A DNA stretch of 64,000 nt from the NCBI RefSeq assembly GCF_024502345.1, contig NZ_JALDNN010000001.1; one strand, written 5' to 3'. This document shows, piece after piece, positions 29,302 through 42,203 of the stretch. Below the pieces are notes generated by a model. It was given only the letters and a program-made list of their open reading frames with translations. It had not been told where the DNA came from and did no database searches. A program made the position numbers and the translations under genes. Source of the DNA: Escherichia coli (GTDB lineage: Bacteria > Pseudomonadota > Gammaproteobacteria > Enterobacterales > Enterobacteriaceae). The first letter of the stretch is position 1. The number at the start of each line of letters is the position of its first letter.

Positions 29302-29994
29302 CTAGTGATAACCACGCGCGGTCATAAAATCCGTAATCGCTTTTTCTGCATCAACTAACACCTGTTCCAGTGGCTGATTGGCGTCGATATCAACCAGTTG
29401 TGCACCACCAAAGGTTAACTGTGGCGTTATGGCTATCTTTCTTGCCAGCGATTCCCTTTTGTGGTCAGGCTTACGCGCGCAGGCCACGTCTAGATCGACA
29501 TTGAGTTTGATGACCAGATCAGGCTTATGGCTCGCCATCCAGTGAAACGCTTTACGTTCCTGGCTTGCCAGCCATGAGACAAAACGACCACCTTCAACGT
29601 TAGGTGGGAACACCGTACCATCGTAAGCGCCAGGAATTTGGTCCTGAGGATAACGGTCGGTTAGAACAATTAACCCGCGACGACGACAGGCAAGCATATG
29701 ACGAAAGCGCAGTAAGCGACGGGCGACAAACGCTGTAATTACCAGCGCCGGAACTGGTCCTGGCAATTTTTTTGCTGTTTTCACCTGATTTCGTTCAATT
29801 GTTTTATGTAAGGATTTTCCCATCAACGGTAATTTTGTCACTGCACGACCGACATTTCCGGCTTGTTTTCCTAAATGAACTCTTTCGGCAGCACCATATT
29901 TTTCGACAACGGTAATGAGATGTTCACACACCGTTGACTTGCCTGAACCATCGCTACCAATAACGGCAATTAATGGAGGTGTTATTGACTGCAT
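29302..29994 (-). CDS. yghT: P-loop NTP-binding protein YghT (kinase-like; Walker [15 protein letters not shown] motif)
   Basis: 230-aa ORF; paralog of yghS and yghR. Confidence 0.8.
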
Positions 29995-30182
29995 GAATAT
30001 ATCCTTAAATTTAAATATCCATCCAAAATATTTATTTGGTTAATATGTTTTTATGAAAGCGTAATTCAGGTCAATGTCACAATTAACCATTGTCACAATA
30101 AGGTTGAATGGATATTCTGAGCACGGACCACGTAATATTCAATACATTATTTACTGCCGGGTTTTTCGTGAATCAACGTAAT

Positions 30183-30881
30183 ATGTCAATAATTAATTCC
30201 ACGCCAGTGCGTGTTATTGCCATTGTAGGATGTGATGGTTCAGGTAAATCGACCCTCACGGCAAGCCTGGTAAATGAACTGGCAGCAAGAATGCCAACAG
30301 AACGCATTTATCTCGGGCAATCGTCCGGGCGAATTGGCGAATGGATTTCACAGCTCCCTGTTATTGGCGCACCTTTTGGGCGTTATCTGCGAAGTAAAGC
30401 GGCACATGTGCACGAAAAGCCCTCAACACCGCCTGGCAATATTACTGCGCTGGTTATCTATCTGCTTTCCTGCTGGCGGGCGTACAAGTTTCGCAAAATG
30501 TTGTGTAGAAGCCAGCAAGGCCATCTGCTCATCACCGACCGCTACCCGCAGGTTGAAGTGCCGGGTTTTCGCTTTGATGGCCCGCAATTGGCAAAAACCA
30601 CGGGCGGTAACGGTTGGATAAAAATGTTAAGGCAGCGCGAGTTGAAGCTGTACCAATGGATGGCGTCTTATTTACCCGTATTGTTGATTCGTCTTGGCAT
30701 TGATGAACAAACCGCGTTTGCGCGTAAACCTGACCACCAACTGGCAGCGTTACAGGAAAAAATCGCCGTTACGCCGCAACTGACATTCAATGGCGCAAAG
30801 ATCCTTGAACTGGATGGTCGGCAACCAGCCGATGAAATTATGCAAGCGTCACTACGCGCAATTCACGCCGCGCTTTCCTGA
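30183..30881 (+). CDS. yghS: P-loop NTP-binding protein YghS (kinase-like)
   Basis: Walker A GCDGSGKST, DRYPQ; start chosen at MSIINSTPVRV. Confidence 0.75.
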   Translation: MSIINSTPVRVIAIVGCDGSGKSTLTASLVNELAARMPTERIYLGQSSGRIGEWISQLPVIGAPFGRYLRSKAAHVHEKPSTPPGNITALVIYLLSCWRAYKFRKMLCRSQQGHLLITDRYPQVEVPGFRFDGPQLAKTTGGNGWIKMLRQRELKLYQWMASYLPVLLIRLGIDEQTAFARKPDHQLAALQEKIAVTPQLTFNGAKILELDGRQPADEIMQASLRAIHAALS

Positions 30882-30912
30882 TCACCAAAATGGATAGGGG
30901 ATGATTTAACGA

Positions 30913-39042: not shown

Positions 39043-40759
39043 CCAGGGATTCCTGCACATGAAGGCTTGCAGCATAAGCCTTCTGATAACGTTTTTTCGC
39101 TTCCGCACGGGCAGGCTTGCCGGAGGATGTTCGGGGAATACTGTGGGGCGGCAACAGATCGATAGCCGCTGTTACGCCAAATTCGCTTTGGATCCGTGCT
39201 GCCAGCGCGTGGATAAGCTGCCCGCGACGTTCTTCGTCGCTGATCCGACACTGGATCTGCAAAATGATTTTTTCCTGGGCGGTAACAAAAGCAATCGCAT
39301 CGCCAGAATGAATTTCCGGTTCTTGTTCCGCAATATATTCAATATCCTGCGGCCAGATATTACGGCCACGAATAATAATCAGATCTTTAATACGTCCGGT
39401 GACATACAGATAACCGTCCAGCAGATAACCGAGGTCGCCGGTGTCTAACCAGCCCGTCGCGGCAATCTCGTCTTGCGAAACCTGGTCGCCAAAGTAACCG
39501 CTCATCAGGCTGGGGCCGGAGATGCAAATATGGCCTACCACACGTTCCGCGACCGGCATACCTGCTTCATTGCGGATTTCAATGCCATGTTCCGGCAACG
39601 CTTTGCCGCAGTTGACGAAAGTCGATACGGCGCGTGTCTCTGCACCCGGCGCGACGGCTTTACCCTGATATTCGAGGATGTCGCGATCCACTTCGTTAAC
39701 CACAACCCCGGAGGCTTCATCAGAGAAGCTGACAGCCAGCGCATTTTCTGCCAGTCCGTAGCACGGCATGAACGTTTTATTGTCAAAGTTAACCTGACGG
39801 AAACATTCAGCGAATTGATGGAGTTGTTCTGCGGAGATCGGCTCAGCACCAATACCAGCGACGCGCCAGCAGGAAAGATCCAGTTCAGCGAGATCTTTTT
39901 CATTCACGCGGCGCTGGCACAATTCATAGCCAAACGGCGGCGCAACGGAAACGGTGCCGCGATTTTTACTGATCAATTTAAGCCATTGCAGAGGACGCAT
40001 GGCAAAATCCTGAGTGCGCAAATAATCTACTGAAAGTTGCGTGGCGACGGGGGTCAGGAGAAAGCCGACCAGTCCCATATCATGGTAGAAAGGCAGCCAG
40101 GAGACGCAGCGGTCGCCAGGGCGTAATTTAATGCCATCGTGGCTTATAGCACGTAGATTAGCCATCACTTCGCGATGGGTGATAATGACGCCACGGGGAA
40201 AACGGGTGCTGCCGGAGGTGTACTGGAGGTAGGCAATATCGTTCGGAACTGGACGCTGGAGCGCAACATCGGCTTCCGGTAATGCCTTAAACCAGGCGTG
40301 GCTTAAAACATGTAATTCGGGGTTGTTATGCGTCGCGGCATTGACCAGTGGCAACCACTCATCACCAGTGATAATGGCTGCGGGCTGGCAACTTGCCAGT
40401 AAACCCTGGAGTTTGGCGCTCCAGGAATCCCGCTGACCGACGCCCATTGGAATCGCCAACGGGACGGCGACTAAGCCAGCATACTGACAGGCAAAAAAAG
40501 CCTCTACAAACCCGCTACTCGTTTCGGCAATCAGCGCCACGCGTTCGCCTTTTTTCAGGTTCAGCGATAACAACCGCTTCGCACCAGCTTCGGCACGCGT
40601 TTTTAATGTCTGATATTCCAGTTGATCTTCAAGTTGGCAACGTCTGTCATAAAAATTCATTCCGGCGCTACTCAGAGCGGCGTAGTCCAAAGCATCAACC
40701 AGCGTTGGAAAATCGGCATAGCGCATAGGTAGGGAATGCGTAAAGATTTTATTAGACAT
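39038..40759 (-). CDS. Fatty-acyl-AMP ligase / acyl-ACP synthetase-type adenylating enzyme
   Basis: AMP-binding motifs YTSGSTRFPRGV and GYG-type; stop overlaps the reductase start (ATGA). Confidence 0.8.
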   Translation of the reverse strand: MSNKIFTHSLPMRYADFPTLVDALDYAALSSAGMNFYDRRCQLEDQLEYQTLKTRAEAGAKRLLSLNLKKGERVALIAETSSGFVEAFFACQYAGLVAVPLAIPMGVGQRDSWSAKLQGLLASCQPAAIITGDEWLPLVNAATHNNPELHVLSHAWFKALPEADVALQRPVPNDIAYLQYTSGSTRFPRGVIITHREVMANLRAISHDGIKLRPGDRCVSWLPFYHDMGLVGFLLTPVATQLSVDYLRTQDFAMRPLQWLKLISKNRGTVSVAPPFGYELCQRRVNEKDLAELDLSCWRVAGIGAEPISAEQLHQFAECFRQVNFDNKTFMPCYGLAENALAVSFSDEASGVVVNEVDRDILEYQGKAVAPGAETRAVSTFVNCGKALPEHGIEIRNEAGMPVAERVVGHICISGPSLMSGYFGDQVSQDEIAATGWLDTGDLGYLLDGYLYVTGRIKDLIIIRGRNIWPQDIEYIAEQEPEIHSGDAIAFVTAQEKIILQIQCRISDEERRGQLIHALAARIQSEFGVTAAIDLLPPHSIPRTSSGKPARAEAKKRYQKAYAASLHVQESLA

Positions 40760-41129
40760 ATACACCACGAAAAAATTGGATATCAAAAATAAAATGACAA
40801 TAATGCGGTGGATTATATAGGCATAAAAGATAAATGAGATAGTATTTTCATCGGTGTGAAAATGAACATTGATTTAAATAATGAGTTTAAGTTTTTTGTT
40901 TTTATTGTGAATGATATTTAATTTATGAATATATTAAGAAGAAGCCTTGTCCGGTCGCCTTAAATCGACAAAAGGCATTGAGGCGCTTCTGTGTAGTCTC
41001 TAACCTTATCATAATCATTAATAAATACTATTTATTCTTTGTTTGTATTCATTGGGTTGATTATTAAGGTGTCGTTCGTTGCTGTTGCAACCTGTTTTTC
41101 ACCGTTAATTATTTGTTATCCACAGAGAT

Positions 41130-42203
41130 ATGGAATGCGATCTGCTGATGATTAAAATTGAAAAAGTAATTAATAAAAATGACCTTAAGGCATTTATCGC
41201 TTTTCCGTCATCACTTTATCCCGACGATCCAAACTGGATACCCCCTTTATTCATAGAACGCAACGAGCATTTGTCTGCGAAAAATCCGGGGACGGACCAT
41301 ATCATCTGGCAGGCGTGGGTGGCAAAAAAAGCGGGGCAGATAGTTGGGCGTATTACCGCGCAAATAGATACCTTGCACCGTGAGCGTTACGGTGAAGATA
41401 CCGGTCATTTCGGCATGATTGACGCCATTGATGATCCGCAGGTTTTTGCCGCGTTGTTTGGCGCAGCGGAAGCGTGGTTGAAGTCACAAGGTGCAAGTAA
41501 GATCAGCGGGCCTTTCAGCCTGAATATCAATCAGGAAAGCGGATTACTGATTGAAGGTTTTGACACACCACCCTGTGCGATGATGCCACACGGCAAACCG
41601 TGGTATGCCGCGCATATTGAACAACTGGGTTATCACAAAGGCATTGATTTACTGGCGTGGTGGATGCAGCGAACCGATCTCACTTTCTCTCCGGCGCTAA
41701 AAAAACTGATGGATCAGGTGCGCAAAAAGGTGACCATTCGCTGCATCAATCGTCAGCGGTTTGCCGAAGAGATGCAGATCCTGCGTGAGATTTTCAACTC
41801 TGGCTGGCAGCACAACTGGGGATTTGTGCCGTTTACCGAACATGAATTCGCGACCATGGGCGATCAACTTAAATATCTGGTGCCGGACGATATGATCTAC
41901 ATCGCTGAGATTGATTCTGCACCCTGCGCGTTTATTGTCGGCTTGCCGAACATCAACGAGGCGATTGCCGATCTGAACGGATCGCTCTTTCCCTTCGGCT
42001 GGGCAAAATTGCTGTGGCGTTTGAAAGTCAGCGGTGTGCGAACTGCGCGAGTACCGCTGATGGGCGTGCGCGACGAGTATCAGTTCAGCCGCATCGGCCC
42101 GGTGATTGCGCTGTTATTGATTGAAGCCTTACGCGATCCGTTTGCCCGCCGGAAGATCGAGCGCTGGAGATGTCATGGATCCTCGAAACCAATACAGGCA
42201 TGA
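41130..42203 (+). CDS. yghO: YghO-like protein, putative N-acyltransferase, divergently transcribed from the FAAL-ACP-SPT operon
   Basis: 357-aa ORF; position matches the K-12 yghO remnant next to glcC; acyltransferase assignment is tentative. Confidence 0.5.
   Translation: MECDLLMIKIEKVINKNDLKAFIAFPSSLYPDDPNWIPPLFIERNEHLSAKNPGTDHIIWQAWVAKKAGQIVGRITAQIDTLHRERYGEDTGHFGMIDAIDDPQVFAALFGAAEAWLKSQGASKISGPFSLNINQESGLLIEGFDTPPCAMMPHGKPWYAAHIEQLGYHKGIDLLAWWMQRTDLTFSPALKKLMDQVRKKVTIRCINRQRFAEEMQILREIFNSGWQHNWGFVPFTEHEFATMGDQLKYLVPDDMIYIAEIDSAPCAFIVGLPNINEAIADLNGSLFPFGWAKLLWRLKVSGVRTARVPLMGVRDEYQFSRIGPVIALLLIEALRDPFARRKIERWRCHGSSKPIQA

Follow-up and report, generated by a model that had tools for sequence, protein, structure and literature searches.

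A putative sphingolipid gene cluster of Escherichia coli, yghT to yghO, interrupted by two frameshifts

Gene content of the yghT-yghO locus

The locus yghT to yghO occupies positions 29302-42203 of a 64,000-nucleotide stretch of Escherichia coli DNA (contig NZ_JALDNN010000001.1), referred to below as the window. A preliminary description, made from the sequence before any database search, had read this locus as a system for the synthesis and export of a ceramide-like lipid. When we mapped the open reading frames (ORFs) of window positions 27000-45000, the whole set listed in that description for 29302-42203 was recovered. Two gene ends had to be corrected. The reductase gene, given as 38126-39042, is there but ends at 39041; its length is therefore 916 nt, a sign that it is frameshifted. 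In turn, the acyltransferase gene yghO, given as 41130-42203, was described in a form truncated by a frameshift, and the intact gene would reach 42271.

Four genes for the synthesis of a sphingoid base lie on the minus strand in the order aasR, cerR, acpR and spt. aasR (39038-40726, with an alternative ATG at 40759) encodes an acyl-AcpR synthetase of the fatty acyl-AMP ligase (FAAL) type, cerR or epi (38126-39041) an NAD(P)-dependent reductase of the epimerase family, acpR (37846-38094) a dedicated acyl carrier protein (ACP), and spt (36674-37846) serine palmitoyltransferase (SPT). All of them are intact in the window except cerR, which is a pseudogene. Divergent from aasR, on the plus strand, is yghO (also bcerS or aca; 41130-42271), a predicted N-acyltransferase gene with a tandem GNAT fold and the second pseudogene of this copy. 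The remaining genes form a plus-strand operon that converges on spt. It begins with yghS (30168-30881) and yghR (30913-31671), which encode P-loop paralogues, and continues with yghQ (31717-33066), a gene for a candidate flippase-like membrane protein of the MOP family (449 aa, intact here). The gene for an all-helical protein of 274 aa with a putative CHAD-like fold follows (33066-33890; a "hypothetical protein" in the preliminary description), then a gene for a YtfJ-family protein (33899-34462), and lptF2 (34493-35563) and lptG2 (35560-36639), paralogues of lptF and lptG. Finally, yghT (29302-29994, minus strand), for the other P-loop paralogue, is divergent from yghS. In E. coli, the locus is flanked by pitB and glcC.

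Several junctions are tight: the aasR stop and the cerR start share ATGA, acpR and spt overlap by 1 nt, as do yghQ and the 274-aa gene, the start of lptG2 overlaps lptF2 by 4 nt, and the gap between cerR and acpR is 31 nt. This arrangement supports two convergent operons plus a divergent yghO. Between the convergent lptG2 and spt genes lies a hairpin with a 16-bp stem (36637-36671), which is likely to be a bidirectional terminator. The AT-rich region between aasR and yghO (40727-41129) presumably contains promoters. Promoter-like sites were, however, no commoner in the locus than in shuffled sequence, and no claim about regulation is made for this reason. A search of positions 28500-43500 against Rfam gave zero matches.

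The alpha-oxoamine synthase of the locus has the pyridoxal phosphate (PLP) motif GTFSKS. On the SPT equivalog model of NCBIfam (NF047599) it scored 599 bits against a cut-off of 500; scores on other models were 428 bits (alpha-proteobacterial SPT), 333 (bioF) and 297 (Kbl). Searches of the Protein Data Bank (PDB) gave 375 bits with the Sphingomonas SPT and 264 with that of Sphingobacterium; the non-SPT enzymes cysteate acyltransferase, Kbl and E. coli BioF reached 205, 204 and 175 bits, respectively. The synthase thus groups with the Sphingomonas SPT rather than with BioF or Kbl, as the preliminary description had supposed. It is 47% identical over its full length to the SPT of S. paucimobilis, with conserved active-site motifs: the enzymes of S. 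paucimobilis and S. wittichii (PDB 2jg2 and 2x8u) have the PLP lysine motif in common with it, as well as the His, Asp and Arg residues of the active site.

A dedicated ACP and an AasR accompany SPT, as in other sphingolipid clusters: acpR adjoins spt on its upstream side, and both acpR and aasR hold the same positions in at least 60 loci of other taxa. AasR scored 868 bits on a FAAL subfamily model (NF006624, cut-off 600). The intact form of CerR matched models of the epimerase and short-chain dehydrogenase/reductase type at sub-threshold scores only, and is 33-34% identical to the CerR of the Caulobacter locus.

No Pfam or NCBIfam family matched YghO. Its homologues are numerous (6458 cluster representatives at E <= 1e-3), nearly all of about 380 aa and aligned end to end, and the intact protein is 42-43% identical to its counterpart in the Caulobacter locus. 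A profile search of PDB sequences with YghO yielded weak GNAT matches only. An AlphaFold model built from 91 homologues reached a pLDDT (predicted local distance difference test score) of 96.3, and comparison of this model with the PDB using Foldseek detected tandem GNAT acyltransferases (2wpw, 7q3a, 5kf1, MshD, Eis and FemX), with E-values down to 8.5e-16. The fold of the model bears out the view that YghO is a putative acyltransferase.

Among the products likely to act in the envelope, LptF2 and LptG2 scored above the equivalog cut-offs (318 bits against 230 on TIGR04407, and 308 against 240 on TIGR04408, respectively). They are 29% and 28% identical to LptF and LptG of K-12, so that the permease pair noted earlier is real and distinct from the housekeeping pair. 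YghQ matched the MOP flippase model NF007773 weakly (33.5 bits against a cut-off of 273). Over more than 90% of its length, it shares 26-27% identity with the product of the gene upstream of aasR in Caulobacter loci, at the position of CC_1166. The YtfJ-family protein scored 213 bits on TIGR01626 (cut-off 151) and has a hydrophobic, signal-peptide-like segment at its N-terminus (Kyte-Doolittle value of 2.03).

YghT, YghS and YghR had been described as three paralogous proteins related to P-loop kinases, and this proved right: their mutual identities are 33-46%, and all three retain the motifs G-x-D-G-x-G-K-S-T (Walker A), D-R-[YF]-P-[QH] and R-K-P-D-H. In YghT, a protein of 230 aa that resembles nucleoside monophosphate kinases, these read GSDGSGKST, DRYPQ and ARKPDH. 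The divergence of the paralogues is ancient, and each of the three constitutes an orthologous group conserved from Enterobacterales to betaproteobacteria. Their nearest PDB relatives in a profile search were thymidylate kinases (E = 1e-5), the similarity lying mostly in the P-loop and the DRY-like region. The name "dTMP kinase", given to YghT and YghS by the annotation pipeline PGAP, is however an over-call: scores on the dTMP kinase model TIGR00041 (24.6 bits for YghT; range of 22-32 for YghT and YghS) and on NF005923 (21-25 bits for the same two proteins) were far below the curated cut-offs of 83 and 193. No ABC signature and no transmembrane segment were predicted in YghT, YghS or YghR; a membrane anchor was considered and dropped, as hydropathy peaks of 1.1-1.35 are under the usual transmembrane threshold. 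A role in defence was also discarded because PADLOC models gave P-loop noise only.

YghR and the 274-aa protein had no meaningful match in Pfam or NCBIfam. The model of the 274-aa protein has a CHAD-like helical fold, but the E-value given by Foldseek is not significant, and no member of its family matches Pfam CHAD (PF05235) by sequence. Compared with known CHAD proteins (6qv5 from Ricinus communis, PptA of Streptomyces, 6rn5, and YgiF of E. coli, 5a61), the 274-aa protein lacks a CYTH partner as well as the Pfam match.

Distribution, relatives and published record of the locus

Positions 29302-42203 were matched by megablast in 4821 of 5426 complete E. coli genomes, with a coverage of at least 80% in 4051. 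The best identity among complete genomes was 99.2%, and intact loci are 95-99% identical over thousands of E. coli genomes. In the closest match, E. coli FDAARGOS_943 (L001), PGAP annotates yghT and yghS as "dTMP kinase" (L001 4001-5580) and yghR as a hypothetical protein, followed by an "LPS biosynthesis protein" (yghQ; LPS, lipopolysaccharide), a hypothetical protein (the 274-aa gene) and a YtfJ-family protein. Then come, in this order, lptF, lptG, spt ("serine palmitoyltransferase"), an acyl carrier protein, an NAD-dependent epimerase/dehydratase, a fatty acyl-AMP ligase and yghO.

For all 13 genes, comparison of L001 with L003, a divergent E. coli, gave ratios of nonsynonymous to synonymous substitution rates (dN/dS) of 0.03-0.14, and comparison with Pseudocitrobacter gave 0.04-0.18. 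These values indicate that the locus, accessory genes included, is under purifying selection. Its GC content (46-54%) is ordinary for E. coli, and no sign of recent horizontal acquisition was found.

In K-12 MG1655, in turn, an IS5 element separates a yghQ cut at residue 355 of 449 from a yghO devoid of its first ~12-19 residues, and the eight genes that lie between yghQ and yghO are absent. The earlier remark that K-12 retains the locus only as remnants therefore holds. The annotated yghO ORF of K-12 (L002 5044-6216) enters IS5 by 70 bp, and its first ~19 residues are non-native. Its product is named "putative DNA-binding transcriptional regulator" in EcoCyc and RefSeq, despite the tandem GNAT acyltransferase fold.

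To place the locus among its relatives, an SPT alignment was used to scan one genome per GTDB species, which gave 80 loci, taken with flanks of 10 kb. The SPT homologues listed were all at least 84% identical; the Sphingomonas SPT sequence, taken from the PDB alignment, was added to reach distant loci. The 13 E. coli proteins were then compared with the 80 loci by tblastn and blastp. In most of them spt, acpR, cerR, aasR and yghO occur together; Enterobacterales, Nitrospira, Geobacter, Methylotenera, many gammaproteobacteria and Caulobacter share the order aasR-cerR-acpR-spt. lptF2 and lptG2 accompany spt in several phyla, and yghQ-like genes are also found in spt loci. The YtfJ-like gene was detected beside spt in Enterobacterales loci only.

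Genes for YghT, YghS and YghR, usually together with those for YghQ and the 274-aa protein, stand beside spt in all Enterobacterales loci. The three genes are also found next to spt outside this order: in a metagenome-assembled genome (MAG) of Rhodocyclaceae (L030), in Methylotenera (L038 and L061), in another betaproteobacterium (L043), and in Luteibacter (L067) and Dyella (L070). In such non-enteric loci, the genes interleaved with yghT, yghS and yghR have products that resemble other enzymes: acyl 2-hydroxylases of the OlsC/LpxO kind (L038, L067, L070), the lipid A 1-phosphate methyltransferase LmtA (L038), lipid phosphatases of the PAP2 family (L030, L038) and a GT4 glycosyltransferase (L061). 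A conserved ORF of ~167 aa that belongs to no family adjoins yghQ in the betaproteobacterial loci.

Three loci from Caulobacter MAGs (L071, L077 and L078) display the series yghQ-like, aasR, cerR, acpR, spt, ~5 kb of other genes, lptF2, lptG2 and yghO-like, with an LptC-like gene upstream. This gene order is that of the published map from CC_1168 to CC_1154 (PMC11324152). Identities between the E. coli and Caulobacter proteins are 27% for YghQ, 44% for AasR, 33% for CerR, 42% for AcpR, 55% for SPT, 25% for LptF2, 23% for LptG2 and 43% for YghO, and some of the genes differ from those of E. coli in place and orientation. The comparison confirms that the ceramide enzyme set of Caulobacter, made of Spt, ACP, acyl-ACP synthetase, CerR and bCerS, has its counterparts in the window, with the same operon order.

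In C. crescentus, the region CC_1152-CC_1168 contains spt, acpR, cerR/epi, aasR, bcerS/aca, lptF2, lptG2, lptC2, the flippase gene CC_1166 and cpgABC. E. coli shares with it the five dihydroceramide genes (yghO being the bcerS counterpart), the order aasR-cerR-acpR-spt, the yghQ-like flippase gene and lptF2-lptG2, but lacks lptC2. Instead of head-group genes like those of Caulobacter, the locus in E. coli contains the three P-loop paralogues, the CHAD-like protein and the exported YtfJ-family protein. Indeed, when ORFs of at least 120 aa from the spt-lptF2 interval of Caulobacter (L078, 11.1-16.2 kb) were compared by tblastn with window positions 29000-42600, no homologue was found at E <= 0.01. 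CpgB, the ceramide kinase of Caulobacter, belongs to the LCB5/diacylglycerol-kinase type and has a GGDG motif (PMC10331486), unlike the P-loop proteins YghT, YghS and YghR. An NCBIfam search of the ORFs of the Caulobacter MAGs did not identify a CpgB-type kinase, so the family assignment of CpgB rests on that publication. Sphingomonas offers a different contrast, as aasR and other genes are scattered in its genomes (PMC9386255) while all are clustered in E. coli.

Both halves of the system have a published record. Padilla-Gómez et al. (2022, PMC9386255) reported rhodobacterial SPTs in E. coli B, including the enterotoxigenic strain B7A and BL21(DE3). According to the same study, the BL21 ACP (ECD_02853, AcpR) bears 4'-phosphopantetheine, co-expression of E. 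coli AasR, AcpR and SPT yields a compound with migration like that of 3-oxosphinganine, and acyl-AcpR is the preferred substrate of E. coli SPT; ECD_02852 was designated epi and yghO (ECD_02850) aca, and C. crescentus and E. coli BL21 were noted as the only ones with all five genes in one cluster. On the export side, LptC2, LptF2 and LptG2, together with the CC_1166 flippase, have been proposed as the sphingolipid export route of Caulobacter (PMC11324152). In Caulobacter, LptF2 forms a complex with LptG2, the two bind LptB, and their deletion is lethal, an effect that the authors attribute to anionic sphingolipids building up in the inner membrane (bioRxiv 10.64898/2026.04.12.717747). That work also reports lptF2 and lptG2 in many alpha- and gammaproteobacterial loci and draws, in its Figure 2B, the sphingolipid operons of E. 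coli UTI89 with lptF2 and lptG2.

ECD_02850-ECD_02854 of BL21(DE3) and the UTI89 locus are the same chromosomal locus as the one examined here; the cerR and yghO frameshifts are what sets this copy apart. Hence, the locus is already characterised, which the preliminary description had been unable to check, and the sphingolipid reading is correct and already published as far as synthesis and export are concerned. New observations are the two frameshifts, the putative CHAD-like fold of the 274-aa protein, and the presence beside spt of a module made of YghT, YghS, YghR and the CHAD-like protein.

As for the surroundings of the locus, the window has a single IS1 copy at ~660-1430 (InsA, 676-951; InsB, 870-1373), next to ORFs of unassigned function (13-642, 1452-2453 and 2389-2862). 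Because of this copy, window positions 1-25000 match many places per genome. No internal repeats of 300 bp or more were found in the window. An IS-rich genome of the Shigella type had been considered as its origin, given the multiple matches per genome obtained with the flanks, but this idea was set aside in view of the single IS1 copy and the lack of such repeats. Downstream of glcA, positions 52263-63858 form a variable island with genes for a methyl-accepting chemotaxis protein (53400-55082), an integrase fragment (56940-57548) and a type I restriction-modification system (hsdR, 58630-61746; probable hsdS, 61862-63091; C-terminal part of hsdM, 63088-63858). None of the complete E. coli genomes covered 80% or more of positions 42204-64000.

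Two frameshifts in the window copy

A global alignment of the window with L001 over 20.9 kb revealed 156 substitutions and only three single-base indels. One indel, at 36653, falls within the hairpin that separates lptG2 from spt, in its loop. The others disrupt cerR and yghO. In cerR, an additional base at ~38936 (codon 36) lengthens a run from one base to two; the reading frame is lost after Thr35, and a stop is found after 41 residues. Downstream of this stop only a reinitiated fragment would be possible, and it would lack the GxxGxxG nucleotide-binding motif. The preliminary description had mentioned a reductase frameshift in passing, and this is its location.

The frameshift in yghO had been overlooked. 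One base is missing at ~42160 (codon 344): the protein is normal up to residue 343 and then runs out of frame into a stop at 42203, while the original C-terminus, ALEMSWILETNTGMNNMLERIGAEPYKRYRLYEKQI, can be read in another frame up to 42271. The stretch lost includes the invariant residue N355 and the nearly invariant E347, W350, L352, K371 and Y373, as judged from an alignment of 91 diverse homologues. In the YghO model, it makes up two strands and a helix, the last ones of the second GNAT domain. Of the genes expected in a sphingolipid cluster, intact forms of cerR and yghO are thus missing from the window; L001 and most E. coli have an intact CerR. Because both genes are frameshifted, this copy would be unable to complete ceramide synthesis and could produce 3-oxosphinganine at most.

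One might argue that both frameshifts are errors of sequencing or assembly and that the locus of the source strain is intact and functional. Two facts speak for this view: searches with exact 81-mers found the cerR frameshift in none of 4118 complete E. coli genomes and the yghO frameshift in none of 4544, and the cerR change is a run that goes from one base to two. However, the exact frameshifted YghO of 357 aa is recorded in 80 blocks of a public assembly collection that comprises NCBI, ENA and Logan, and contigs retrieved by exact look-up of that protein (L084-L090) permitted a closer comparison. L084 matches the window at 100% identity over 7074 bp, both indels included, and L087 also carries both frameshifts. 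In L085 and L086, only the yghO frameshift is present, and CerR is intact (304 aa); L086 shows zero mismatches with the window, the absence of the cerR insertion being the sole difference. The recurrence of both frameshifts in independent assemblies, one nested within the other, indicates that they are real and sequential rather than random errors, and we consider error a highly unlikely explanation. In this natural lineage, yghO was therefore hit before cerR, whose lesion arose in a sub-lineage. Another of the retrieved contigs, L090, has an IS1 inserted at a position that matches ~40744, between aasR and yghO.

Proposed pathway and alternative readings

Altogether, the locus is very probably the enterobacterial version of the proteobacterial sphingolipid cluster, interrupted in this copy by two sequential frameshifts. 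In the pathway that we propose for the intact locus, AasR would use ATP to load a fatty acid onto AcpR, and SPT would join acyl-AcpR and L-serine to form 3-oxosphinganine; both steps have been demonstrated with the BL21 proteins (PMC9386255). By homology and synteny with Caulobacter, YghO would then N-acylate the base and CerR would reduce the 3-keto group, thus yielding dihydroceramide. Work on Caulobacter also suggests that YghQ may flip the lipid across the inner membrane and that LptF2 and LptG2, probably driven by the housekeeping LptB, may extract it towards the outer membrane. YghT, YghS, YghR and the CHAD-like protein may modify the head group, with phosphorylation as the most plausible reaction.

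An alternative concerns the product. The synthase might yield another amino-ketone, such as a glycine, alanine or cysteate product or a signal similar to CAI-1, and the cluster would then make an acyl-amino lipid other than a sphingolipid. Alpha-oxoamine synthases are indeed promiscuous, the E. coli enzyme also matches the BioF, Kbl, CqsA-type and cysteate acyltransferase families with lower scores, and its native product is unreported. On the other hand, the 599 bits scored on the SPT equivalog model and a lead of ~170 bits over any non-SPT structure point to SPT. Besides, the PLP lysine motif and the arginine of LLRCS are invariant between the E. coli and Sphingomonas enzymes, and label from 14C-serine was found in a product of the E. 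coli enzyme with migration similar to that of 3-oxosphinganine (PMC9386255). We consequently view a different product as extremely improbable. Another possibility is that the plus-strand operon (yghS, yghR, yghQ, the 274-aa gene, the ytfJ-like gene, lptF2 and lptG2) and yghT are unrelated neighbours that serve LPS or another envelope polymer. The names assigned by PGAP, "LPS biosynthesis protein" for yghQ and LptF/LptG for the permeases, fit this idea, and the link of these genes with sphingolipids in E. coli is a predicted one. Yet lptF2 and lptG2 are found beside spt in Nitrospira, many gammaproteobacteria and Caulobacter, and YghT, YghS and YghR, usually with YghQ, in three non-enteric lineages (Rhodocyclaceae; Methylotenera and other betaproteobacteria; and Xanthomonadales). 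The housekeeping lptF and lptG of E. coli are separate genes, and their products are only 28-29% identical to those of the locus; Caulobacter needs LptF2 and LptG2 when sphingolipids are made (bioRxiv 10.64898/2026.04.12.717747). We thus regard this reading as very unlikely.

A sphingolipid function for the locus has also to be weighed against several observations. In our literature search, no ceramide or other sphingolipid was reported from wild-type E. coli, nor was there any report of ceramide made by E. coli genes. In BL21 with empty vectors, 3-oxosphinganine was not detected (PMC9386255), and the locus may for this reason be silent in the laboratory. The activities of E. coli CerR and YghO are predicted, published accounts disagree on whether N-acylation or reduction comes first, and the match of YghQ to the MOP flippase model is as weak as 33 bits for a cut-off of 273. 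Lastly, the roles suggested for YghT, YghS, YghR, the CHAD-like protein and the YtfJ-like protein derive from gene neighbourhood alone.

With regard to the former four proteins, a tentative interpretation, which we regard as possible but doubtful, is that they make up an undescribed head-group module for the sphingolipids of beta- and gammaproteobacteria, replacing CpgABC. The lipid-phosphate and acyl-chain enzymes encoded next to yghT, yghS and yghR in other loci make head-group phosphorylation the most plausible role for such a module. Our literature search found no paper that links yghQ, yghR, yghS or yghT with sphingolipids.

For studies that involve expression of the locus, the pseudogenised copy in the window is unsuitable unless two repairs are made. 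Its nested frameshifts are, at the same time, evidence of stepwise decay in a natural lineage. About three quarters of complete E. coli genomes carry the 13-gene cluster under purifying selection, and the class of lipid concerned is one that textbook E. coli, that is, K-12, is said not to make. YghT, YghS, YghR and the CHAD-like protein provide a concrete lead for the head-group chemistry: if the proposal of a module is true, the head group that it adds to ceramide might be a phosphate, di-phosphate or poly-phosphate.

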